DNA of 64,000 nt from a virus. The notes beneath the pieces are model-generated. The model saw nothing but the letters and a program-made list of their open reading frames with translations, had not been told where the DNA came from and searched no databases. The translations under genes were made by a program, and so were the position numbers. The stretch lies in IMG/VR virus record IMGVR_UViG_3300031758_000006. One strand, written 5' to 3'. Below, piece after piece: positions 25,974 to 48,248 of this stretch. Positions within the stretch are counted from its first letter, which is position 1. Every line of letters starts with the position of its first letter.

Positions 25974-27071
25974 ATGAAAGTTAATGTCAAACATATTAAA
26001 TGTGATATGTCTTCGGAAGATAGAAAATTAACCGACGACTTTATCAGATACCTACAGAAAAAAATTCCGATTAAACGTGAAATTACCATAAATTTTGTTG
26101 GTGAAAGAATTGGTAGTATGTCAACTGGTGGTCACCACCCAGAACGAGGTATAAAAGTTCTAACAAAAAATAGATTAAACCGGGACATATTAAGAACATT
26201 AGCTCATGAATGGGTTCACGAATACCAACGAGATGTTTTGAAACGTGAACGTGGTGAGGATATTGGTGGACAAAACGAAGACGAAGCTAACGCGTACGCT
26301 GGTCGACTGGTTAAAATGTTTGAAAGGGACTACCCACAATACGAAAATTTAGTTTATGAAAGTTTATATGGGGTTGAAAAAAAACTTAACCTAATCAGTG
26401 AACAATTAGTGATTCAGGAAAAAACAAATTTAAGATCTGAATTACTTATGGAAATGAAAAAAATTGGTATAGAAAGATTACCATATTCATATTCATCAAT
26501 GAGTCAATTTGTGGATCCAAAAACAATGGACATCCATTATAACAAACATTATAAAGGGTATGTTAAAAAACTTAATGACGCGTTGTCCAAAAAAAACTAC
26601 AAAGGTGATTTAGAATTGGAAAGTATTATTAGAACCATAAGTAAGTATAACGATACAATTAGGAACAACGCTGGGGGTGCGTTTAATCACGCGTTGTTCT
26701 GGAAAATGTTATCACCAAAGAAACAAGTACCAAAAGGTGAAGTTTACGAGAAAATCACAAAACAATACGGGAATATTAAAAAAATGAAAGATGAATTTGA
26801 ATCGGTAGCTAAAGATCGATTCGGATCTGGATGGGTTTGGTTGGTATTAACCAAAACAAATAGATTGAAAATTGTATCTACACCCAACCAAGATAACCCA
26901 TTAATGAATACAGTTAAAGATGGGGGGTACCCAATTTTAGGTTTAGATTTATGGGAACACGCTTATTATTTAAAATACCAAAACAAACGTGATGAATATA
27001 TTAAAAAGTTTTGGAATCACGTTAATTGGGGATTTGTTAATGAGTTATACCTTCTTAGAACAAAACAATAA
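25974..27071 (+). CDS. sodA: fusion: HExxH metallopeptidase-like domain + Mn-type superoxide dismutase
   Basis: N-terminal LAHEWVHE. C-terminal SOD ligands IHYNKH, FNHALFW, DLWEHAYY. AGG and NQD signatures favour the Mn type. Confidence 0.85.
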   Translation: MKVNVKHIKCDMSSEDRKLTDDFIRYLQKKIPIKREITINFVGERIGSMSTGGHHPERGIKVLTKNRLNRDILRTLAHEWVHEYQRDVLKRERGEDIGGQNEDEANAYAGRLVKMFERDYPQYENLVYESLYGVEKKLNLISEQLVIQEKTNLRSELLMEMKKIGIERLPYSYSSMSQFVDPKTMDIHYNKHYKGYVKKLNDALSKKNYKGDLELESIIRTISKYNDTIRNNAGGAFNHALFWKMLSPKKQVPKGEVYEKITKQYGNIKKMKDEFESVAKDRFGSGWVWLVLTKTNRLKIVSTPNQDNPLMNTVKDGGYPILGLDLWEHAYYLKYQNKRDEYIKKFWNHVNWGFVNELYLLRTKQ

Positions 27072-31593: not shown

Positions 31594-34320
31594 TTAAATC
31601 CAAGACATTTCAACCCCAGTCACATGAGCTGTCCATCTAATATTATCACTAGCAACCCCAGTCACTAAAATTTCTAATTGATCTAAAGTGTTATTTGCGG
31701 AAATAGAAACATTCCAAGCAGTATTATTTTCAACGTCGGTACCCACTGTTGAAACCGCCCCAATAAGTGTGGTGTTCCCACCAACATTTTTAACAGCAAC
31801 TTTTCTAATATAATGAGCTGAACAACCAACACCACATGGGAATGTTGCGTTTTCTTGAACAGCTGAAATTGATACCGTTAAAAATAAAGCTTTACCACTA
31901 GGTACTGTTAACCCTACTGTACTTGTTGGGTAATCTAAAAATAATTTAGTTGGTGTTGCTGTATTAGTTTTATTTGAAAGTAAAAACTCTACCTTTTGAT
32001 TATCTCCCGGATTTGAAAACGTACCTATCGATAAACTTTGTTGACCATATCTGGATGTTAAAGCACCACAACCATAAGCTGTACTATATTCTGATTGTAC
32101 TGTATTACATCTACCACCAATTATTGAACTATAAGTGGAATTTGAGGATATTCTATTTTGTATTCCGTTAATTATTGTACTATAACAAGTCCCCCCAGAT
32201 ATAAAATTAAGTTGACCATTACCGATCATATTAACACATCCACCACTAAAAATGTAATTTAATGCACCACCGACAATTATACTAGAATTTGACAAAATTG
32301 TATTACAAACACCACCATTAATTATACCATATATCGATGAACAACTAATTGTATTATGTATACCACCATTAATTGATGACCCCGTTGTTCCTGTAAATAC
32401 CGTATTTTTAGCCCCACTATTAATGTTTGAAAAACACGAGGATGATGCTACCGTGTTCCCACTACCCCCACCTATAAATCCATGATCACCATTCAAACAG
32501 TTTGATACCCCACCACCAATAACACTATCCGTGGACATTACTGTATTTGTTGATCCACCACCAATAACAGATCTGGATCCTCTAAGGTTATTAAGTAATC
32601 CACCTAAAACTGAAGAATGGTTACCAATGTTTTGATTACTTTGACCACCAACAATAACACTACAACCACCTAATGATTGATTACCTAAACCATTACCAAC
32701 AAATGAATATTGACCGCAAGATTGATTACAATACCCACCAACAATTGATGAATAACAATTATCTGTTATGTTATTACAACCACCACCAATAAATGAACAA
32801 CAAGAGTTTAATTTGGTTAAGTTCTTTTCCCCTCCGGAAATGACAGAACTACCACCACATGATGTATTACAAATACCACCACCAATCAAAGATTTTGTAC
32901 CTGTTGACCATATTGTGTTTTTACAACCACCATTAATTACTGAACAAAAAGAGTACGATGTATTACATTCTCCACCACCTATCGTATTTAATACACCTTC
33001 ACTGTAATTTAAAATACCACCAGATATTACACTCTTTGAAGTAGGACACATTATTTTATTTTGACATCCACCACCAATTACTGAACAATCACTAGTCCCC
33101 CAAATTGTGTTTAAACACCCACCAGCAATTGTACCATTAGTGGATAAGATGGTGTTGTCATTTCCACCACCAATAACAGCCCCTCCAGACGATACCCAAA
33201 CCACATTTGAATTACCTCCGTTTATGGAACTAACCGTTCCCTCAGATACATTAAAAATTCCACCGGTAATAACCGAACCAATACCATTTGATGTAATAAT
33301 GTTTCCACTACCACCACCAATATTACCACCGGTCTCGATTGTGTTATTATCACCACCACCGATTGTTGACAAAGTACCAATCGCAGTATTAGAACCACCG
33401 CCAGCTATGACTGAACATCTACCGTTTGATGTGTTTGATATTCCACCACCAATTACCGAAAAACAAACTGAAGCGGTATTACAATACCCACCACCGATTG
33501 TTGTGGAACAACCTACAGATGTGTTATAATACCCACCAGTCACGTTACTATATATAGTATAAGAGGTATTACCCTCACCACCAAGTACTGAAGAACAATC
33601 ACCAAAAGAATTAGAATTTACATTTATTCTTTGTGTGGAATTAATACCAGTACCAACCTCATGTAAAATGTCTATCCCAGCTATTGATGCCGTAGTTGTT
33701 TGTGTATTTAAATCTAATGTACCAGTTGTTATGTCATAAGTTCCACCAGTTACATAGTGATCTGTATACCCAGTCACAAATCCGGTTACAGTAAATGTAC
33801 CACCAGTACTGTTTGTAAATTCAACATCGCCAGTATTTAAATCGTAAGTACCTCCTGTCACAAAAGTATCACCAAGTAAAGGCAACAGACTTACAGTATC
33901 ACTAAACCCATCATTTCTAGTTATTGTCAAATCCATCGCTGGAGTTTGGAATGTTAGTCCAGTGAAATATGTGTCAGTAAATCCAGTTATGAGAAAATTA
34001 CTACCATCATTATTTGTTAATGTTAATTCTTCGGTAATGTCATTATATGACCCACCGACAACGTATTGGTATCCAGGTATAGTTATCGTACCACCGGTTG
34101 AGTTATTTAATTGTAGTAATCCTGAAGATGGGAAATATGTCCCACTTACAATATCCCCGCCAGAAGTAACCCCACTTAAAACATAAGGTAAAAACTGACT
34201 TAATGGTGTATGTTTTGTCGTACCACTAAATACATCATAGTTTACTATAGCTATTATGTCATTAGTTGTGTAGCCTGTGTTCCCAACGTAAGGTAACTGT
34301 GATATTCTTTTATCTGCCAT
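31594..34320 (-). CDS. tail-fibre/adhesin-like protein with Cys-rich S(V/T)IGGGxxN repeats
   Basis: MADKRISQL N-terminus, VTGGTY shaft modules, a long run of ~15-aa GG repeats and a beta-sandwich-like C-terminus. Confidence 0.7.
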   Translation of the reverse strand: MADKRISQLPYVGNTGYTTNDIIAIVNYDVFSGTTKHTPLSQFLPYVLSGVTSGGDIVSGTYFPSSGLLQLNNSTGGTITIPGYQYVVGGSYNDITEELTLTNNDGSNFLITGFTDTYFTGLTFQTPAMDLTITRNDGFSDTVSLLPLLGDTFVTGGTYDLNTGDVEFTNSTGGTFTVTGFVTGYTDHYVTGGTYDITTGTLDLNTQTTTASIAGIDILHEVGTGINSTQRINVNSNSFGDCSSVLGGEGNTSYTIYSNVTGGYYNTSVGCSTTIGGGYCNTASVCFSVIGGGISNTSNGRCSVIAGGGSNTAIGTLSTIGGGDNNTIETGGNIGGGSGNIITSNGIGSVITGGIFNVSEGTVSSINGGNSNVVWVSSGGAVIGGGNDNTILSTNGTIAGGCLNTIWGTSDCSVIGGGCQNKIMCPTSKSVISGGILNYSEGVLNTIGGGECNTSYSFCSVINGGCKNTIWSTGTKSLIGGGICNTSCGGSSVISGGEKNLTKLNSCCSFIGGGCNNITDNCYSSIVGGYCNQSCGQYSFVGNGLGNQSLGGCSVIVGGQSNQNIGNHSSVLGGLLNNLRGSRSVIGGGSTNTVMSTDSVIGGGVSNCLNGDHGFIGGGSGNTVASSSCFSNINSGAKNTVFTGTTGSSINGGIHNTISCSSIYGIINGGVCNTILSNSSIIVGGALNYIFSGGCVNMIGNGQLNFISGGTCYSTIINGIQNRISSNSTYSSIIGGRCNTVQSEYSTAYGCGALTSRYGQQSLSIGTFSNPGDNQKVEFLLSNKTNTATPTKLFLDYPTSTVGLTVPSGKALFLTVSISAVQENATFPCGVGCSAHYIRKVAVKNVGGNTTLIGAVSTVGTDVENNTAWNVSISANNTLDQLEILVTGVASDNIRWTAHVTGVEMSWI

Positions 34321-34356
34321 GTTCTTTATTATATAAATATTAATTATAATTAAAAA

Positions 34357-34974
34357 TTACTCCCCAATCCTAACCACCTCAAAATACGGCTGGTTAAAAA
34401 ATGTATTATCAAATACTGGGTACCCTTGATTACCTACACCACCACTAGCACCACCATGTAAACAAACGATCCCGATCCATTCGTTACCTAATGATGTATA
34501 TATTTTTGAACCGGATTTTGTTGACTCACCATTCCCGGTTGTACCAATGAAACCTTGATCTAAGTATTCAATCTTTGTACCTAGATCCCCACTACTTGAT
34601 GTTGTTGAGGTTATCAAGGCCAACCTCAAAAAGTCAGTTCCGTCAGTCATATCGTAACTAGAGTACCTAGCTTTAATTAAATATCTACCGGGTAATATTA
34701 GTTCTATTTTACTGCTGGTTGGATTAAAAACCGACGGAGAAGTGTTAATTACGGTATTATTATACGGGACTAAAAACTCAACACCATTGGTCGTATTAGA
34801 CAAACCAGAAGAACCATTAATGTTTATTTTACAATATGGGAACTGTAAATATTCGGTTATTGATGAAAATGGAGTGTGATAAGTTGTTCCGGTTAATTCG
34901 ATGGGGAATAGGGTATCCTCAGTTATATTAGTGAGTACTGGTAATTCACCGATTGTTTTTCCTGTTAGTGACAT
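34357..34974 (-). CDS. fibre-associated protein with C1q/TNF-like beta-sandwich
   Basis: KTIGELP N-terminal motif; FLVPYNNTVIN...FNP...PGRYLIKA pattern. Confidence 0.45.
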   Translation of the reverse strand: MSLTGKTIGELPVLTNITEDTLFPIELTGTTYHTPFSSITEYLQFPYCKININGSSGLSNTTNGVEFLVPYNNTVINTSPSVFNPTSSKIELILPGRYLIKARYSSYDMTDGTDFLRLALITSTTSSSGDLGTKIEYLDQGFIGTTGNGESTKSGSKIYTSLGNEWIGIVCLHGGASGGVGNQGYPVFDNTFFNQPYFEVVRIGE

Positions 34975-34986
34975 AATCTTATTTAT

Positions 34987-36216
34987 TTATATTGGGTTAT
35001 TATATTTTAAGTAATTGTTTAAACCCACATTTAGATACGTATCACTGCCAACTATAATTGGATCGATAATATAATATGTGGATGTTGGGGTTACAGTTGG
35101 GGTTGGTGTTATAGTATTTGTTGGTGTTACGGTAGGTGTTACAGTTGGTGTTACAGTTGGTGTTATAGTATTTGTTGGTGTTACGGTAGGTGTATTTGTT
35201 GGTGTTACGGTAGGTGTATTTGTTGGTGTTACAGTTGGTGTTATAGTATTTGTTGGTGTTACAGTTGGTGTTACAGTTGGTGTTATGGTATTTGTTGGTG
35301 TTACAGTTGGTGTATTTGTTGGTGTTACAGTTGGTGTTACAGTTGGTGTTACAGTTGGTGTATTTGTTGGCGTTACAGTTGGTGTATTTGTTGGCGTTAC
35401 AGTTGGTGTTACGGTAGGTGTATTTGTTGGTGTAGGTGATATTGGAAATATTTCCTCAATTTGCCAATTTAAATTTGACGGGTCCGTAGTCACATCTGTA
35501 AATTGATCCACACGAGTTAAATTAGAGTAATCCTCACCCAGGTTAATTACTGTAGAACCAAAATTACTACCCTGTGATATGGTAACACCGGTAGTTATTG
35601 TTATTGGTAAACCACTAAATACACCTAAATTGTGTGTAAAATTTAATGTGGTATCGATAATTACGGGTTTATTAGAAAATAGATTATACGTTATGTTTAC
35701 CGACCCGGGTAATACCGTAACCACCAATGTCAATTCCGTTGGTGTTTCGGGGTTTATAAAACAAAATTGAGTTGTTGTCGTTGTTATCACCGGGTTAGAC
35801 GGTACACAACAAGGAAATTCCGAAACATAACATGAGTCGTACATCAAATCGTCAGAGATAAAACTATCCTGAACTGTTATATATAATTTTTCCCTGATTG
35901 GTAATATTAAATTACCCTCATTTGTTTTTAATAAAAATTGTCCTTCATACCTACCAACACGATTTGTGTCTTTATTTGTGAACTGGTAATACACATAATA
36001 TTCTGGACTAGCGTTTGGGTCTAACATTATTTTATTTACAAACCCAGCTGGTCTAGTTACTAACTTTGGTATCCCATTTTCAGTATCAATCATAGAGAAG
36101 AAAATGGACGATTCCTCAATAAGATCCATCATCTTATTGTAATCACTACGACCATCCTTCACTACTTGTAATTTTAAAACCGGTAGTGTGGCATTTTTTT
36201 TAATGAAAAACTCCAT
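34987..36216 (-). CDS. BppU-like baseplate/fibre-anchoring domain + mucin-like PT tract
   Basis: [16 protein letters not shown]...[15 protein letters not shown]...LILP is BppU-N-like, followed by ~110 aa of [14 protein letters not shown] repeats. Confidence 0.65.
35094..35435. repeat. 12-bp-unit coding tandem repeat (PTVT/PTNT)
   Basis: Near-exact GTTGGTGTTACA / GTTGGTGTATTT units repeated more than 20 times. Confidence 0.95.
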
Positions 36217-36243
36217 TTAATGTTTTTAATATAAATATATTAA

Positions 36244-37920
36244 TTAACATTCTTTTCTTAAATTTCCATCATAAAAATCAAATCGATTGTGTTCTGTTGG
36301 TGTTAACAACAACAATCCAGGTTTAATATTTCCCTTAATTGTTTCTTGATAGCAATTAGACATTAATGTCTGTTCGTAAGGATGTTTAAATTTTGTTTTT
36401 AAGTAACACTTATAATTACCCACTTTTGACATTAGAATAGGCCAATTTGATAGGTATATCTCCCCAGATACATATGGAATACCACCATACGATTTTATGT
36501 GTTTAAATTCTAAATCAGGTGAGTTTGGGTCCAGTCCAATTAAAGGCAGTGATCTGTTGTTAGGCCAATGACTTTCTCTAAAATGTTGTGGTACATTATA
36601 CCAAGACCATTGTTTATCGTGACTCCCAAAAAATTCGGTAAAGTTTAATTTTAAAAAATCAAACCCCTCTTTTTTTAGAATTAATAATGATTTTTTAAAT
36701 AAGTTTTTAACTTTTCTGTTAAACCCGTTTTTACATGTTTGATCAACACCATTATAAAAAAACATATCATCCTCAAAGAAATAGTAAAAGGATAGATCTT
36801 CTTGGTCATTAAAATGTTCAGATATAAACTGTCTACCACCAGTAATTCCGATGTTATCTTTTTTTATATGTTCAAAACCATACATTTCACATAACCTAAC
36901 ATATTCATCCGTAGTCGTTAGATCGGTCGAGTTATTAAGTAGAAATTTTTTAGTACTAAAAATAAAATCAGAGTCATACTCCAGTATGGACTCAATCAAG
37001 GTTTCGAATTGTTTTGGTGAATTAAAAGTGATGACATATAAACCCACAGAACCATTATCATTAGAATAGTCATTTGGTTCTTTTTTGTTCTTTGTTTTTA
37101 AAACTAAATTATTGTTTTTAACATCTTCAAAAAATTTATATAATAAACCATTACCCTCAATCTCGTAATAGTTTATCACATCCGGGTTATGGTATAACAA
37201 TATAGTAAATAAACTTTCCTCAGTACCCATGAACCCCTCACTCAATGTTTGAGTTAAAATATTATAATATAATGTATTTAGTTCTGTTATCAACTCCTTA
37301 TCCCCACCAAAAAATCCACCTCTAGCCACAATATTAGGGTTATCATTTGTCATCTCACACATTTTACTAAATGTAAATCCGTGTATTTCCGAGTTAGTTT
37401 CATATGGGAAACATATAAAATTAAATTTACTTAATTCACTATCTATTTTAGATAAAACTAAATCCTTTGTAAAATAACCTAAATGAATGGTATTTGTTAT
37501 ACCAGCGTCAATCCAAAATAATTTATCTGAATCAAATCTGTCTAAAATTTTTGCGTCATGTAATAAAAACATTTTAGACATTACTAATGGATTATACATC
37601 TCCAACTTAGCTTGTGTCGAATCAGATAACCATCCGACTTGATTATACCAATCGGGGTTGTTTCTAATCGTTTGGATTTTATCATAGTATTCATTGTTTT
37701 TAAACCAAGTAAGGTCTCTTAAAACAAATTGGGTGTTTTCCCTGGATCTATGTTTGAAAACAAACTCCATTAAATTTTCATCACCAAAAATTATAAGATT
37801 ACAATCAATGGTTAATAATTCCGTGAATTTTTCTAAATAATAATCAAATGACCTGGACCATCCTTCAGACATATCACCACGACCAATATCCCACAATCCA
37901 GTAACTAAAGTTGTTTTCAT
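36244..37920 (-). CDS. two-domain glycosyltransferase: HtrL/YibB(WlaTC)-like + GT-A
   Basis: TTLVTGLWDIGR...RSFDYYL, LFWIDAG, GGFFGG, GTEESLF. Second domain VGLYVITFN...DNIGITGGRQ...FFEDDM. Confidence 0.7.
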   Translation of the reverse strand: MKTTLVTGLWDIGRGDMSEGWSRSFDYYLEKFTELLTIDCNLIIFGDENLMEFVFKHRSRENTQFVLRDLTWFKNNEYYDKIQTIRNNPDWYNQVGWLSDSTQAKLEMYNPLVMSKMFLLHDAKILDRFDSDKLFWIDAGITNTIHLGYFTKDLVLSKIDSELSKFNFICFPYETNSEIHGFTFSKMCEMTNDNPNIVARGGFFGGDKELITELNTLYYNILTQTLSEGFMGTEESLFTILLYHNPDVINYYEIEGNGLLYKFFEDVKNNNLVLKTKNKKEPNDYSNDNGSVGLYVITFNSPKQFETLIESILEYDSDFIFSTKKFLLNNSTDLTTTDEYVRLCEMYGFEHIKKDNIGITGGRQFISEHFNDQEDLSFYYFFEDDMFFYNGVDQTCKNGFNRKVKNLFKKSLLILKKEGFDFLKLNFTEFFGSHDKQWSWYNVPQHFRESHWPNNRSLPLIGLDPNSPDLEFKHIKSYGGIPYVSGEIYLSNWPILMSKVGNYKCYLKTKFKHPYEQTLMSNCYQETIKGNIKPGLLLLTPTEHNRFDFYDGNLRKEC

Positions 37921-38765
37921 TAATCAAATATATTGTAAAAATATTTTATACTATCGTCAGTGTGTTCAGGTCTTCTATACCAGTCATCAAAAGAAATTAA
38001 ATTAATACCGTTATTATTGTTATAAAATAAACAAGATAGTATTTGTTCTTCCATATATAACTCCTTCTCACTATTGAGTAACTCAACCAGTAAGTTCTCA
38101 AATTGATCCCTAAAGTTTGAAAATAATTCAGGTTTCCCACCAAAAAATCCACCTATAACATGGTGATCCCTTTGGTAATCTATATAATACTTGGTTGGTA
38201 AGGTTTGTGACCAGAAAAATCTACCGGTATTATTCTTCCCAACCAAAATAAATTTTTCATCTGACATATCATTAAGTTTATTTAAAAATCCACTATTAAA
38301 TGATGTGAATGAGTAATACCTATCATAACCAGTACCGTAAGCTAAATTTTCGGGGAATAACCCACTATGTGATAGTCCAGCGTCAAACCAATATATTCTA
38401 TCATATTGGTTTTTATTCTCTAACATATCGTACCAAAAAAATTTATTATACTGAACTTCAAAACATCGGTCAATAGTCTTCATAAGTTCTAAATCTTTTA
38501 AAGATCTAATCTGATTAAAATATTTAGTGTCATGTAAATCAAAAACAATAAACTCAAGTTTTTCTGGTGAAACACCCCAGTTATTATAAAAATGATTTTT
38601 TAAATCATTCAACTCTTCTTGCGGTACAAAACAAATAAATTTATTAGCTTCTAAGTTTAAAATATTTTTTAATGAAGATCTGTAGTGATAATGTCTCGAC
38701 GGTCTACCACCAAATTCAGTTCCCCATAAATTTGAGTATATTGACGTGTAAATTAATGTTTTCAT
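37920..38765 (-). CDS. HtrL/YibB-like glycosyltransferase
   Basis: QYNKFFW, IYWFDAGL, IGGFFGG, YMEEQILS parallel the first domain of the adjacent gene. Confidence 0.65.
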   Translation of the reverse strand: MKTLIYTSIYSNLWGTEFGGRPSRHYHYRSSLKNILNLEANKFICFVPQEELNDLKNHFYNNWGVSPEKLEFIVFDLHDTKYFNQIRSLKDLELMKTIDRCFEVQYNKFFWYDMLENKNQYDRIYWFDAGLSHSGLFPENLAYGTGYDRYYSFTSFNSGFLNKLNDMSDEKFILVGKNNTGRFFWSQTLPTKYYIDYQRDHHVIGGFFGGKPELFSNFRDQFENLLVELLNSEKELYMEEQILSCLFYNNNNGINLISFDDWYRRPEHTDDSIKYFYNIFD

Positions 38766-38770
38766 ATTTA

Positions 38771-40018
38771 TTATAAATTTCCTGTTATACGATCACACCA
38801 ACCTTTTGATTTTGAGTATGGCCAAACAACCCAATAAGCCGGTTTTTCTTTAGTGTTAAATTGTCTCCATATTTTACAATATCCGTCTGGATCAGTCATC
38901 ATCATTTTTATCTCATCTGTACTAGCGTCTTGTCTATAGATTGTTTCATCTGTTTTATCGTGAAAAGCAACCACCCAATATTCGTAATCGTTTTCCGGTA
39001 CCTGTAAAAAGGATACATCAATACAGTGTTTAAAAATTGATGAAAAACTCTCAACCCAATCCTCTTCGGTTTCAAAGTCGTATGGATTTGGTGGGTATTT
39101 CTTATCTATGGTGTATTTTTGTACAGCTCTTTTAGAGAATAAAACACCGGAATATTTTTCATAATCCTTAATTGTTCTTTCGGTACCAAAACCATATTTA
39201 CCAAGGTCACCGTTATATACTTCACCATCCACACCTAATACCTCCCTGTTTTTTTTGTGTGAAGATTCATTTTTTAAGTACCAAACTTTATCATCGTCCC
39301 ATTGTTTTGTTCTACCTTTTCTGGTGTATTCGTGCCAAATAACAGTTTTATGGGGATGAAACAAATCATAACCGTGTGTATAAGCTCTAACAGCTATAGA
39401 AATTTCCTCACCATGAAAGTAATATTCCGGGTCGTGTTGTACCTCAACACTAAATTGACCAAGAGTAAAACAAAAATGAGCTGAGTAAAATCTAGATGTT
39501 ATCGGTTCGGTTAAATCTTTCCACCCAGGAATTGTCTCCGGTAAAAAGAAAACACAACCCTCTGGGGTGAACCGATCAAAAACCATCCTCCAAGGGTCAA
39601 CAACCCGACCATCTGGATCGTTTTCTGGATCGAAAGATGATACATATCCGGTTAATAGGGGTTTTTTATATCCCTTATCCTGTAGATCAGATAACATATC
39701 TATTAATGTTTGATCCCAGTCTTGATCAAATCTCATGTGTGAATCAATCTGTAGTGTATATTCCTCACCACCGTACAGTTGTTGTACTTGATTACGAGCC
39801 CAACAAACACCTTTAGATTCCTCGTGTGGAATATTTAGAACTCTAAATCTTTTATCTTCTTCATAAGATGAAAGATCATCAAATTTATCTTCTGGGTGGT
39901 ATTGACGAGCGATACCAAATACTAAATTTTTAGGATGTTTTGATTTACTAATAGCGTCTTCTATTGTCGGGACTAATTGTGGATCCCTATATGAAGCGAT
40001 TTGAATGAATATCTTCAT
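38771..40018 (-). CDS. GT60-like (Gnt1/polypeptide alpha-GlcNAc-transferase) glycosyltransferase
   Basis: IFIQIASYRDPQL, ESKGVCWAR, YTLQIDSHMRF..WD, SAHFCF, FHGEE...RAYTHGYDLFHP. Confidence 0.8.
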   Translation of the reverse strand: MKIFIQIASYRDPQLVPTIEDAISKSKHPKNLVFGIARQYHPEDKFDDLSSYEEDKRFRVLNIPHEESKGVCWARNQVQQLYGGEEYTLQIDSHMRFDQDWDQTLIDMLSDLQDKGYKKPLLTGYVSSFDPENDPDGRVVDPWRMVFDRFTPEGCVFFLPETIPGWKDLTEPITSRFYSAHFCFTLGQFSVEVQHDPEYYFHGEEISIAVRAYTHGYDLFHPHKTVIWHEYTRKGRTKQWDDDKVWYLKNESSHKKNREVLGVDGEVYNGDLGKYGFGTERTIKDYEKYSGVLFSKRAVQKYTIDKKYPPNPYDFETEEDWVESFSSIFKHCIDVSFLQVPENDYEYWVVAFHDKTDETIYRQDASTDEIKMMMTDPDGYCKIWRQFNTKEKPAYWVVWPYSKSKGWCDRITGNL

Positions 40019-40060: not shown

Positions 40061-40240
40061 CTATACTTTAGTTTTTAACATTAGTATAAAATTATCCCAA
40101 ATATCCTTTTCGTCTTGATTTAAATCGTCGTATTTAACTAAGGTTTGTGATTCAGGTAAAAAATCATTACCATACTGTAGTATTGATCTAACATCAGGAC
40201 TATTTGTTAATTGAACCACTATTTGTTGTAAATCTTTCAT
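40061..40240 (-). CDS. 59-aa hypothetical protein (not in track)
   Basis: MKDLQQIVVQLTNSPDVRSILQYGNDFLPESQTLVKYDDLNQDEKDIWDNFILMLKTKV*, starting 13 nt after the stop of the spike gene. Confidence 0.6.
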   Translation of the reverse strand: MKDLQQIVVQLTNSPDVRSILQYGNDFLPESQTLVKYDDLNQDEKDIWDNFILMLKTKV

Positions 40241-40252
40241 TGTGTAATATTA

Positions 40253-44690: not shown

Positions 44691-45647
44691 TTAACTACAT
44701 AACCAACAATCAACAGTACCCAAGAAGTCATTAAAGGTTCTGTAGACATTGTAATTTATCTGGAATCCATTTCCATCTACTATAATTATTGTACCTATAT
44801 TGTTTGTTGGTATGTTAAATCCATTACAACCAATCGTACTATTTCTAAATCCTGTTGGTTGTGGTAATGATATCGGTATTAAAATGTATCCCCAGTATGG
44901 TGTAACACTACTCGTAAATGTAACATAATCATCTGTTGGGTCATTTGTATACTCGAAAGTAAGAAGTGAAGAGTCCCCACTAGTTATTGACGAACCACTA
45001 AATTTACCAAAATAAATTCCTGGTAAGTCTGGTTCCGGTGAACTACTAGGTGTTGGTGTTGGTGTATTCGTTGGTGTGGTAGTATTGGTAGGGGTAGGTG
45101 TCATAGTATTTGTTGGAGTAACTGTGTTTGTTGGAGTAACTGTTGGTGTAGGTGTAGGTGTTGATTTACATATTTGATATGTTGGTGTGGGTGTTGGTGT
45201 TTTTGTTGGGGTTGGTGTATTACTTGGATGTGGACATCCACAAGGACTTGTACAAGTTTCAGTTGGTGTTGGTGTTACAGTTGGGGTAACGGTATTCGTT
45301 GGTGTGTTCGTTGGTGTTGGGGTTGGTACCTTACAAGGATCAAATGTTGGTGTTGGTGTTACAGTTGGTGTTGGTGTAGGTGTTTGTGTCCTTGTCGGAG
45401 TCACAGTTGGTGTTGGTGTGGGGGTAGGTCTTGGAACATTTAATATATTCGGACAATCCCCATTCTCAACTAGTATCGTATAGACACCGTACACTTCCCT
45501 TGGTGGTACTAATAAGTCCGGGAAAAAAATAAACGGTAACGTAACTTGACCTAGATTAATGACAACATTATCATTATCCGGTTTAAAAATAACGGTAGCT
45601 AATTCACCGTCAAAATTTATACTATCTATGGTTATACTTTGACTCAT
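44691..45647 (-). CDS. structural-type protein with Cys-punctuated mucin-like PT tract
   Basis: About 130 aa of [12 protein letters not shown] repeats between two beta domains. Confidence 0.6.
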
Positions 45648-45696: not shown

Positions 45697-46581
45697 CTAA
45701 TTTTGTAAGGACTCGACAATCTCATCCAAATTAAAAATATTATTATCGAACATAGGACATTCATGTGTTGTACCATTGAAGTCGTAGTCAAATAAATAAC
45801 TATCTGGTAATTTAACAGTATTTGGTAATGTAGCCACTATATTTTTGTGTAACCCATACCCAAACACAACCGGAGATGTCCCAACCCAAAGAACTGTTGA
45901 CTGGAGACCTAAAGCTGCCGAAGCGTGTTGTAGTGATGAATCAATTAATAATCTTTTTTCTGAAGCTAATAACATTGAAAATAATTCCATATTTGATAAT
46001 GGTTCATGTACAACCTCAACATTGGGTAAAGAGTTGTGTTCATGTCGACAAACTTGGATTATATGATATTTCTCGGAAAATACCTCAACAATTTTTTGAG
46101 CTACTTCATATGGAATATCCCTAGTCCATGAATATGTGTGTGGTTGTTCTTGTAACGGACCACCATTTGTTTGAATAACCATTACCGGTTTTTCTCTTAA
46201 CCATTTACCATGTGCTATTTGTAATTGTCTAATATTGAATTTTAAAACAGGTTGTTCGTTATTATATTTTAAATTATGTAGTTTACACCAATTTAACAAT
46301 AAATGTAATCTTTTGTGTATGTGATCATCGGTAAAATATGGTTCATGTTTAAATACCATAGTATCTTTATTATTAATAAAATCGTCGTAGAAATATGGTG
46401 TCATACCAAGTCTATATACTCGATCAACAAAATCTAAGTTTAGAAATATTTCTGGGTAAGCACAAACAATTATTAATTCTCTGTCCGGGTGATTATTTTT
46501 TATACATTGGGCTACCGCTGTAGCTAGAACGTGCTTACCCAAACCACCCTCAATGTGAAATAAACTATATTTTTTTTCCAT
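45697..46581 (-). CDS. GT9 (heptosyltransferase)-like GT-B glycosyltransferase
   Basis: GGLGKHVLATAVAQCIKNNHPDRELIIV and LLIDSSLQHASAALGLQSTVLW mirror GT9 motifs. Confidence 0.65.
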   Translation of the reverse strand: MEKKYSLFHIEGGLGKHVLATAVAQCIKNNHPDRELIIVCAYPEIFLNLDFVDRVYRLGMTPYFYDDFINNKDTMVFKHEPYFTDDHIHKRLHLLLNWCKLHNLKYNNEQPVLKFNIRQLQIAHGKWLREKPVMVIQTNGGPLQEQPHTYSWTRDIPYEVAQKIVEVFSEKYHIIQVCRHEHNSLPNVEVVHEPLSNMELFSMLLASEKRLLIDSSLQHASAALGLQSTVLWVGTSPVVFGYGLHKNIVATLPNTVKLPDSYLFDYDFNGTTHECPMFDNNIFNLDEIVESLQN

Positions 46582-46586
46582 ACTAA

Positions 46587-46615
46587 ATTATATAACTGTT
46601 TTATTTATTTGTAAA
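46587..46615 (-). promoter_or_regulatory. sigma70-type promoter, probably leaderless
   Basis: TTTACA (46615-46610), 17-nt spacer, TATAAT (46592-46587), then 5 nt to the ATG at 46581. Confidence 0.45.
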
Positions 46616-47512
46616 CGACAAAGCTAATTCTATTTTTTCCCAGACCATATCTGGGGTTATTTTTAAATGACATTCATTTTCCCTACCGGTCCCCAAAAAT
46701 ACCGGACAATGTGTTTTAATGTTCATAAACATATTAAAACATCCATTACACACATTTGGGTTTAACACACGAAAACAATCAAATTCATTTTGTTTTTTTG
46801 TAAAGTTAGATATCATAACCACCGGTATGTCATACGCCCAAGCTAACCAAGATAAACCAGAGGACAACCCAATAAAAATCCTAGATTCGAGTATGTGGTT
46901 TAAGGACACCGTAATATCATCGAAACCGTTACAATTTGTCACACCTTCAAGATTTAGTGTATTCTCATATGATACATTTGTCACTTCATACCCAGATGAG
47001 GTCAATCTGTTAACAATTTCCTGCCACCCATTATCATAATCCCACCTAGCTATTTTCTTTAATGATTCCGGTGCGATTGAAATTTTATTATTTTTTTTGT
47101 TAATTTTATATGGGATAACCGGACATTTTCCGGGTTTAGTATCTTGTGGTAACATCATGGTATCTTTGGTAGCGTACATCATACCATTTAGGGTATGTTT
47201 TAAATTACCTTTATCATAACCAATGTCCAACAATCTATCAACCTCAATATAAACCGGATTATTAGCTTTTATAAATTCACACCTATCAACATCTTTAGAT
47301 TGGAATAAATGTGGAAAAAAGGTTGATATGTAAATCTTTTTGGGTTTGTGGTATTCAATAAACGGATCAATGAAAGATGAAAAACATATTGTATCACCCA
47401 AACAAAATGAGTCAAAATGAAGTAGTAACGTACGACCATTAAAATTTGTAATATTTGGATCTAACTGTATGTACTTTAATAATTCCTCTTCTTCGTAATG
47501 TCGTTTAACCAT
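46601..47512 (-). CDS. autotransporter O-heptosyltransferase (AAH/TibC, BAHT)-like protein glycosyltransferase
   Basis: SFCLGDTI (catalytic-Asp motif), LKKIARW...GWQEIV, FIGLSSGLSWLAWA...VVMISNFT, and a four-Cys motif CNGC...HC...EC. Confidence 0.75.
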   Translation of the reverse strand: MVKRHYEEEELLKYIQLDPNITNFNGRTLLLHFDSFCLGDTICFSSFIDPFIEYHKPKKIYISTFFPHLFQSKDVDRCEFIKANNPVYIEVDRLLDIGYDKGNLKHTLNGMMYATKDTMMLPQDTKPGKCPVIPYKINKKNNKISIAPESLKKIARWDYDNGWQEIVNRLTSSGYEVTNVSYENTLNLEGVTNCNGFDDITVSLNHILESRIFIGLSSGLSWLAWAYDIPVVMISNFTKKQNEFDCFRVLNPNVCNGCFNMFMNIKTHCPVFLGTGRENECHLKITPDMVWEKIELALSFTNK

Positions 47513-48248
47513 TTTTAAGTTTTAAAATTTTAGAATAATAATCAAACCAATATCTTTCTTGCCACAATGTACCTTCCTCAAGTGAGACTAACGGTTTATT
47601 TTGCCAAGGTTTTTTAGCTATAAAATGTAATATTTTAATATATTTTGGTAGACCTGTATTTATGAAAATTTGTTTAGAGTACGTCTTTAAGTAATTATAC
47701 TCGATTGGAATAGTACTAATTACGTCACTAAAGTACAAATTAATAATATCCTGATCAAAGTGTTCAGTAATACCATATATTAATGTTAGATTAATTAAAT
47801 CATTTGTTATTTTTTCTGACAAATATTTTTTGTCGATAACCATAACACCCGTATTATATTGGTCAATATATAATTCCCGGACACACCCGAACGAATGTGA
47901 ATAATCAATCAGGTAATCGATATTACCAAGAACAACAATATCTGAATCTAAAAATATTATTTTATCAACATCACTAATTGAAAATATCTCATACTTTGTG
48001 TAATCACCAAACCCAGTCTGGTCTGATTTTAATTCGTCAATATTACCGTACTTTGACTGGTCATAATTTTTTAATGAAATATTATTATGTATTTTCCTAG
48101 AGGTTATCAGATCATCCGAAGTTAAATCATTACTGATCACCATAAATGGTATATTTTCATCAACAACCCTGGGATTGTTTTCCACTAATGATTTTAACAT
48201 TACCTCAAAACCAATTAGATAGTCCTTATTACATACTGATACAAACAT
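47505..48248 (-). CDS. GT8-family glycosyltransferase
   Basis: TKYEIF, IIFLDSDIVV, YNTGVMVI, DQDIIN, IEYN, HFIAKKPW. Confidence 0.85.
   Translation of the reverse strand: MFVSVCNKDYLIGFEVMLKSLVENNPRVVDENIPFMVISNDLTSDDLITSRKIHNNISLKNYDQSKYGNIDELKSDQTGFGDYTKYEIFSISDVDKIIFLDSDIVVLGNIDYLIDYSHSFGCVRELYIDQYNTGVMVIDKKYLSEKITNDLINLTLIYGITEHFDQDIINLYFSDVISTIPIEYNYLKTYSKQIFINTGLPKYIKILHFIAKKPWQNKPLVSLEEGTLWQERYWFDYYSKILKLKNG

Follow-up and report, generated by a model that had tools for sequence, protein, structure and literature searches.

A GT60 glycosyltransferase encoded beside a Pro/Thr-repeat protein suggests mucin-type O-glycosylation of particle proteins by a jumbo phage

The glycosyltransferase family GT60 is a GT27-related initiator of protist mucin-type glycans and lacks a ricin domain (PMC8724618), and its protist members include the Trypanosoma cruzi pp-alpha-GlcNAcT, the Dictyostelium Golgi pp-alpha-GlcNAcT2 and the cytoplasmic Skp1 Gnt1. 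The T. cruzi enzyme glycosylates KPPTTTTTTTTKPP and requires Mn2+ (PMC3769586). GT27 and GT60 are GT-A families in which DxH replaces DxD and a C-terminal His serves as a metal ligand, and GT60 is already known to occur in prokaryotes (PMC7185993). In public tables, PF11397 proteins of uncultured phages, Megaviridae and Pandoravirus already carry the label 'Glycosyltransferase, GlcNAc'; our literature searches for GT60 together with phage or bacteria returned nothing relevant, and no published description was found of GT60 genes that pair with Thr/Pro tracts, be it in phages or in bacteria. Here we analysed a 64,000-nt stretch (hereafter the window) of IMG/VR virus record IMGVR_UViG_3300031758_000006, which makes up most of a 78-kb viral contig with a CheckV completeness of 27%. 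It encodes a GT60 enzyme at the head of a three-gene cassette followed by a mucin-like protein rich in Pro and Thr (PT-rich), this pairing recurs in related phages and across bacterial phyla, and the phage probably puts sugars on proteins of its own particle. The features concerned are as follows.

38771-40018, minus strand: GT60 (PF11397) glycosyltransferase, 415 aa (Pfam, PHROG, alignment, AlphaFold2 model)
37920-38765, minus strand: HtrL_YibB-fold protein, 281 aa, probable second glycosyltransferase (fold and GGFFGG block)
36244-37920, minus strand: two-domain protein, 558 aa, with an HtrL_YibB domain (aa 2-256) and a putative GT2-like C-terminal domain (aa ~286-558)
34987-36216, minus strand: candidate substrate and virion protein, 409 aa (AlphaFold2 model, fold matches, synteny)
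35077-35436, minus strand: Pro/Thr tract of the 409-aa protein, aa 261-380, with units PTVT, PTNT and PTNTIT (composition, unit counts, tandem array)
35770-35784, minus strand: Thr5 run of the 409-aa protein, aa 145-149, in a disordered linker after the FPCC motif (sequence, alignment, model confidence)

The open reading frame (ORF) at 38771-40018 was confirmed as a true GT60 glycosyltransferase. A preliminary description of this locus, made from the DNA letters, had assigned it to the family by the motifs ASYRD, QIDSHMRF and HGEE, and all three were found, at aa 8-12, 90-97 and 202-205, respectively. The hidden Markov model (HMM) search that the same description had named as a possible refutation supported the assignment, since the Pfam profile PF11397 ('GlcNAc') matched with an E-value of 2.3e-68 and 231.7 bits against a cut-off of 21, with profile positions 2-44 and 97-349 covered; the protein also matched PHROG 24687 ('glycosyltransferase') with an E-value of 4.6e-162. 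In an alignment of 44 sequences of 36-80% identity, D92, H94, E204, E205 and H229 were invariant, and the protein thus carries both the DxH, as D92-S-H94, and the C-terminal His, as H229, so that by analogy with the characterised families these three residues would be the metal ligands. The AlphaFold2 (AF2) model, with a predicted local distance difference test (pLDDT) score of 96 and a predicted template modelling (pTM) score of 0.90, consisted of a catalytic GT-A domain from aa 1 to ~295 and an extra beta-rich C-terminal domain (aa ~300-415) outside the Pfam model. When the model was compared with solved structures by Foldseek against the Protein Data Bank (PDB), the best fold matches were polypeptide GalNAc-transferases (E ~1e-10, probability 1.0), among them GalNAc-T2, T4, T1, T7, T10 and T12, PGANT9 and TgGalNAc-T3, with GlfT2 and TarS ranking after them. 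The GT-A fold is therefore nearest to that of GT27, with the beta-rich domain in place of a ricin-type lectin domain. A PDB sequence search with the protein gave chance matches only (E >= 0.13) and no GT60 structure. No hydrophobic or membrane segment was found in any of the three cassette transferases, which argues for action in the cytoplasm, the site of phage particle assembly.

In comparison with the protist enzymes, the phage protein shares PF11397, the DxH, the C-terminal His and the lack of a ricin-like domain; like Gnt1, it is soluble, is predicted to be cytoplasmic and is followed by putative elongating transferases, and its candidate acceptors, which are Thr runs and Pro-rich, resemble the T. 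cruzi acceptor KPPTTTTTTTTKPP. It differs from the protist set in being phage-encoded and in carrying the extra C-terminal domain of ~115 aa. The GT27 polypeptide GalNAc-transferases are its best structural matches and have the DxH metal site in common with it, and their use of Thr/Ser acceptors in Pro-rich mucin domains is a further candidate likeness; unlike them, however, the phage enzyme has no lectin domain, membrane anchor or Golgi setting and, at 10-16% identity, is not a GT27 member. A separate observation on the family concerns three metagenomic proteins of 1641-2461 aa (P0122, P0123 and P0124), in which ~4 tandem GT60 domains are fused to 2-oxoglutarate-Fe(II) oxygenase domains of the prolyl-hydroxylase type, with an AhpC/TSA domain in addition in two of the three; these fusions recall the hydroxylase-then-Gnt1 logic of the Skp1 pathway. 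They led us to consider hydroxyproline as the acceptor, and this candidate was rejected: no such oxygenase domain was present in any of five related phage records, and without a prolyl hydroxylase in the related phage genomes hydroxyproline is an unlikely acceptor.

The GT60 gene was described as heading a cassette, and it is indeed the first of three packed transferase genes, separated by gaps of 5 and -1 bp. It is the cassette, through the 558-aa gene and a spacer of 27 bp, that lies directly upstream of the gene for the 409-aa protein, and the earlier placement of the PT gene is correct in this sense and incorrect for the GT60 gene itself. A scan for promoters and terminators gave the same counts as in shuffled sequence, and our claim of an operon is accordingly limited to the short spacers. 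The 281-aa protein had no Pfam or other HMM match; it shares a GGFFGG block with the HtrL half of the 558-aa protein (E = 2e-6), and its ESM Atlas model matched HtrL_YibB clusters with TM scores of 0.70-0.72. The 558-aa protein matched PF09612 (HtrL_YibB) over aa 2-256 with an E-value of 2.3e-20 and 73.7 bits against a cut-off of 24.1, and TIGR02192 with an E-value of 2.9e-22, under the cut-off of that model. For its C-terminal half the nearest clusters are viral, and in one of them 25% of the members carry PF00535, a lead towards a GT2-like domain. On the other side of the cassette, the GT60 start is preceded by an AT-rich spacer of 44 bp, and most of the gap to the gene for a 488-aa fibre protein is occupied by an unlisted ORF of 59 aa (40063-40242, minus strand; MKDLQQIVVQL...).

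The 409-aa protein is laid out as an Ig-like N-domain (aa 1-120), the FPCC motif, the T5 run, a second Ig-like domain (aa 160-256), the PT tract and a 29-aa C-terminal motif. Its AF2 model (pLDDT 84.5) showed two Ig-like sandwiches and a disordered linker containing the T5 run, with pLDDT <50 for aa 127-149. The tract is 120 aa long and consists of 50% Thr and 24% Pro; its core, aa 263-372, contains 55 Thr and 26 Pro in 110 residues, in agreement with the ~110 aa of Pro/Thr repeats described before. With 16 PTVT and 10 PTNT units in the protein, and an array detected by Tandem Repeats Finder at 35084-35434, this is a long low-complexity tract of Thr and Pro of the kind that defines a mucin-like domain. 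The label 'BppU-like' fared less well: no Pfam family was found for aa 1-260, even at E <= 10, and none for the whole protein, and what remains of the label is a modest fold match. In a VIA comparison of aa 1-120 with 48,161 solved chains, the four best matches were all phage baseplate proteins, namely 6v8i_BJ (Z 8.8, root-mean-square deviation 2.7, 104 residues aligned), 4v96_AA (Z 8.6), 9m8o_P (Z 8.2) and 3uh8_A (Z 7.8), of which 4v96 chain AA is from a baseplate entry of the lactococcal phage TP901-1 and 3uh8 is the isolated N-domain of its ORF48, a domain of the BppU type; unrelated Ig folds come next at Z 7.7, barely under these matches. Judged from the modelled fold, a role of the N-domain in anchoring to the baseplate is plausible. 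The short C-terminal motif after the PT tract (34990-35076, minus strand, aa 381-409) recurs in homologs, for example as IITNNNEYISTGNEEYLKYQ, and may be a docking peptide on the stalk end. A plus-strand ORF at 35078-35506 ('GVTVGV...') was rejected as a gene because it arises from the PT repeat read in reverse complement.

To what extent the arrangement is conserved was seen in 84 phage loci around GT60 homologs of 63-86% identity. Homologs of the N and C halves of the 558-aa protein were found in 81 and 78 of these loci, respectively, which makes this protein the conserved partner of the GT60 gene. Homologs of the 409-aa N-domain occurred in 73/84 loci, always downstream of the cassette, and the gene order GT60, carbamoyltransferase or 281-aa protein, 558-aa protein and N-domain homolog was kept in these 73; the 281-aa protein has homologs in 29 loci, and a carbamoyltransferase gene takes its slot in most relatives and in Xanthomonas phage XacN1. 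The N-domain family is conserved at its start and has FPCC at its end, beyond which the homologs vary widely: some stop there, and others continue with a T4-T8 run, with a PT tract (the longest of ~390 aa) or with additional domains, reaching a total of 1,231 aa. A T4-T8 run stands at the position of the T5 run in most homologs that reach past the N-domain, and 24 of 51 distinct N-domain homologs carry a PT tract of at least 20 aa. Throughout whole phage records, tract-coding DNA forms a few clusters, and in two of the three near-complete phage genomes that have tracts, a cluster lies 0.3-2.3 kb from the GT60 gene. GT60 is very common in environmental jumbo phages, where clustering at 90% identity leaves >7,000 protein clusters.

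A scan of one genome per bacterial species, with contexts read from ORFs and Pfam, returned >560 GT60 relatives. Eighty bacterial loci of +/-6 kb (906 kb in total) were sampled, and a PT-rich ORF was present in 29 of them; in at least 10 it was the directly adjacent co-directional gene, and these adjacent genes span Gemmatimonadota, Acidimicrobiia, Acidobacteriota, Verrucomicrobiota and Alphaproteobacteria. Several of the PT neighbours contain little beyond a twin-arginine (Tat) signal (SRRQFxxYL) and PT repeats, and others add PqqD, BNR or LamG domains. In Ralstonia, Achromobacter and Paraherbaspirillum, VgrG spikes of the type VI secretion system with Pro/Thr tracts of 48-146 aa are encoded a few kb from GT60 (L169:8267-11131, L151:11052-13034 and L119:9900-12458). 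Phage-type proteins are a further kind of neighbour. Five genomes of 3.3-4.5 Mb, picked from the 29 PT-positive loci, were then scanned whole, and in four of the five the largest cluster of TPTxTPT-coding DNA lay inside the GT60 locus (11/28, 3/5, 12/18 and 4/9 matches). From the cluster densities of these five genomes, capture of such a cluster by a 13-kb window would occur by chance in an estimated few percent of cases, so that 29/80 is by this estimate a strong enrichment even allowing for related genomes. A soluble enzyme fits with these neighbours, as the cytoplasm is where phage tails, type VI secretion spikes and Tat substrates fold or are assembled. Five small proteins with a Tat signal and 90-160 aa of Pro/Thr repeats (L131:7479-8240, L147:7491-8126, L121:2549-3463, L124:488-1012 and L143:2792-3454) come from different phyla; two of them adjoin GT60 and the rest lie within ~5 kb of it.

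A cultured relative is XacN1, whose ORF334 is a GT60 homolog with 48% identity to the window enzyme. In its ORF334-ORF333 region the gene after the GT60 homolog encodes a carbamoyltransferase, which is also the case in most relatives of the window, and PT-rich proteins are encoded nearby. XacN1 virions contain at least two Schiff-stained glycoprotein bands, for which phage transferases were proposed to be responsible (PMC5852040). XacN1 differs from the window phage in its Gammaproteobacterium host, and PMC5852040 contains neither a GT60 assignment nor a mention of PT tracts. In mycobacteriophages, the sites of virion O-glycosylation are, as far as the citation goes, the C-termini of capsid and tail tube subunits (Freeman et al. 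2023, cited in PMC12619734); as in these phages and in chlorovirus PBCV-1, virus-encoded cytoplasmic transferases would here decorate the virus's own structural proteins. The mycobacteriophage sites as cited there are unlike those proposed here, since no long PT stalks on a baseplate-type protein are among them.

Transferases and a PT-rich protein meet a second time in the window, and fibre-type genes lie downstream of the 409-aa gene:

45697-48248, minus strand: second transferase block, with a 294-aa protein, a 303-aa Aah/TibC-like homolog and a 247-aa GT8 (TIGR04414, PF01501)
44691-45647, minus strand: second Pro/Thr-rich protein, 318 aa, with 54 Thr and 42 Pro in aa 61-210 (sequence)
31594-34974, minus strand: fibre-type genes of 205 aa and 908 aa with Ser/Thr/Gly/Asn-rich repeats (ORFs, sequences)

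The members of the block occupy 45697-46581, 46601-47512 (303 aa) and 47505-48248, all on the minus strand. The 303-aa protein matched TIGR04414 with an E-value of 5.8e-33 and 114.3 bits against a cut-off of 200, and by sequence it is clearly a homolog, not an equivalog, of the Aah/TibC autotransporter protein O-heptosyltransferases; the GT8 matched PF01501 with an E-value of 1.1e-21. The 318-aa protein, the N- and C-terminal parts of which have homologs in related loci, is encoded directly downstream of this block, and beta-helical fibres also follow it. A plus-strand ORF at 45187-45483 (GVTVGV...) proved to be a shadow of the second Pro/Thr tract in reverse complement and was likewise discarded as a gene. 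The 205-aa and 908-aa proteins, with spacers of 12 and 36 bp to their neighbours, had no Pfam match and are possibly further substrates.

On this evidence we consider it fairly likely that the soluble GT60 enzyme puts the first sugar on Thr residues of the phage's own particle proteins, in Thr runs and Pro/Thr tracts. The cassette lies in the tail-fibre/baseplate region, and the enzyme would act late in infection, before particle assembly. By family precedent, the first sugar would be an N-acetylhexosamine (HexNAc) from a UDP-sugar, with the metal presumably held by D92, H94 and H229. The first candidate substrate is the 409-aa protein, with its Ig-like BppU-type anchor, T5 run and 120-aa PT(V/N)T stalk; the HtrL-like and GT2-like domains might then extend the glycan, and the expected product would be a stiff, protease-resistant, mucin-like stalk on the virion. 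The protein O-heptosyltransferase homolog beside the second PT protein in the same window counts in favour of this proposal. As for the mucin-type O-glycosylation pathway announced in the preliminary description, its proposed link between enzyme and PT protein is supported by the phage synteny in 73/84 loci, the bacterial enrichment and the XacN1 glycoproteins; the pathway itself is inferred.

Several observations weigh against glycosylation of the PT tracts by GT60. The XacN1 bands were not identified in PMC5852040, and XacN1 encodes a second transferase. Related record G004 (256 kb, 85% complete) has GT60, 36 bp and then a tail-less N-domain homolog of 121 aa; TPTxTPT-coding DNA is absent throughout this record, and its Thr-run-coding clusters (>=5 consecutive Thr codons) lie ~86 kb from the GT60 gene. 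A Thr/Pro tail is missing from about 15 of the 51 distinct N-domain homologs. Phage fibre modules often contain PT linkers, and adjacency within such a module is therefore partly expected. GT60 could be a protein glycosyltransferase for other sites, such as Ser/Thr-rich beta-helical fibres, the conserved N-domain found in the 409-aa family, or host proteins, with the PT tracts as ordinary nearby linkers. G004 and the many tail-less N-domain homologs speak for this explanation, and Ser/Thr-rich fibre genes fill the neighbourhood; yet the adjacent bacterial gene is often just a signal peptide and a PT tract, tract-coding DNA is almost confined to the GT60 locus in the whole genomes scanned, and characterised GT60 enzymes act on Pro-flanked Thr runs (PMC3769586), so that we regard it as unlikely.

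The cassette might instead build or alter a host envelope glycan, such as the lipopolysaccharide (LPS) core, a capsule or another glycolipid, for instance to block superinfection, with the PT protein unrelated to it. LPS-core loci typically contain members of the HtrL_YibB, GT8 and GT9 families, and a review of jumbo phages takes phage transferase clusters as modifiers of surface polysaccharides (PMC7824862). Some bacterial contexts also speak against the PT tracts as substrates, with ADP-heptose/GT9 genes in Tunturiibacter, where the GT60 homolog stands beside GT9, HldE-like and epimerase genes, and a C39 ABC exporter in Sphingobacterium. Against an envelope product, the cassette encodes three soluble proteins and no membrane-spanning transferase, flippase or polymerase, it sits amid fibre genes in one packed co-directional run, and polypeptides are the acceptors of the enzymes whose solved structures come closest to GT60; the association with PT-rich genes across phyla would also be left unexplained, and we therefore hold this explanation to be quite unlikely. 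T4 and other phages glycosylate modified DNA bases against restriction, and the transferases might serve restriction evasion in the same way. Phage transferases often hypermodify DNA, at least as cited from Pyle et al. 2024 in PMC12619734, and a DNA polymerase gene lies ~5 kb from the cassette. However, two related near-complete phages (CheckV 100% and 97%) have a canonical thymidylate synthase >100 kb from GT60, one scoring above the NCBIfam equivalog cut-off and one just under it; no hydroxymethylase-type gene was seen beside the cassette, TET/JBP-type and other base-modifying genes not having been searched; and the GT60 fold and bacterial contexts indicate polypeptides. DNA modification is thus weakly disfavoured by these genes, and overall we consider it highly improbable.

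The window has a GC content of ~33% and encodes a family-B DNA polymerase, a T4 gp13-like neck protein, an SNF2 helicase and numerous Ser/Thr/Gly/Asn-rich fibre-type proteins. Its near relatives are contigs of 250-320 kb, from which we take the uncultured window phage to be a jumbo phage; a megablast search with 18 kb of the window gave no match among GenBank phages. The nearest bacterial GT60 homologs, with 63-67% identity, come from Saprospiraceae and other Bacteroidota assemblies, and judged from these sequences the host is probably a Bacteroidota bacterium. On two long Saprospiraceae/Lewinellaceae contigs with cellular-looking flanks, GT60 (58-67% identity) is paired with an HtrL/GT2-like gene (L092:5980-9092 and L096:5968-8887), a hint of the phage host group and of gene exchange between host and phage. 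Elsewhere in the window, at 25974-27071 on the plus strand, an Fe/Mn superoxide dismutase domain (aa 167-357) is preceded by an N-terminal extension of ~160 aa that belongs to no known family; relatives have a 733-aa version of this fusion.

To our knowledge, mycobacteriophages are so far the only phages shown to glycosylate their own particle with enzymes that they encode; among other viruses, the same has been shown in giant algal viruses. If the glycosylation proposed here is true, baseplate and fibre proteins would carry a mucin-like coat started by GT60, which would be a different chemistry. Such a coat could influence how stable, protease-resistant and adhesive the particle is and how hosts or grazers recognise it. 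That enzyme and tract also occur together in many bacterial phyla suggests an undescribed, general route of cytoplasmic protein glycosylation. We put forward, as a tentative proposal, that GT60 represents a widespread prokaryotic route of mucin-type O-glycosylation on Thr/Pro tracts in the cytoplasm, the targets of which might equally tentatively comprise phage baseplate and fibre proteins, type VI secretion spikes and Tat-exported proteins; jumbo phages would carry this route to coat their particles, and it would be a counterpart, possibly an ancestor, of the initiation of such glycans in protists and animals.

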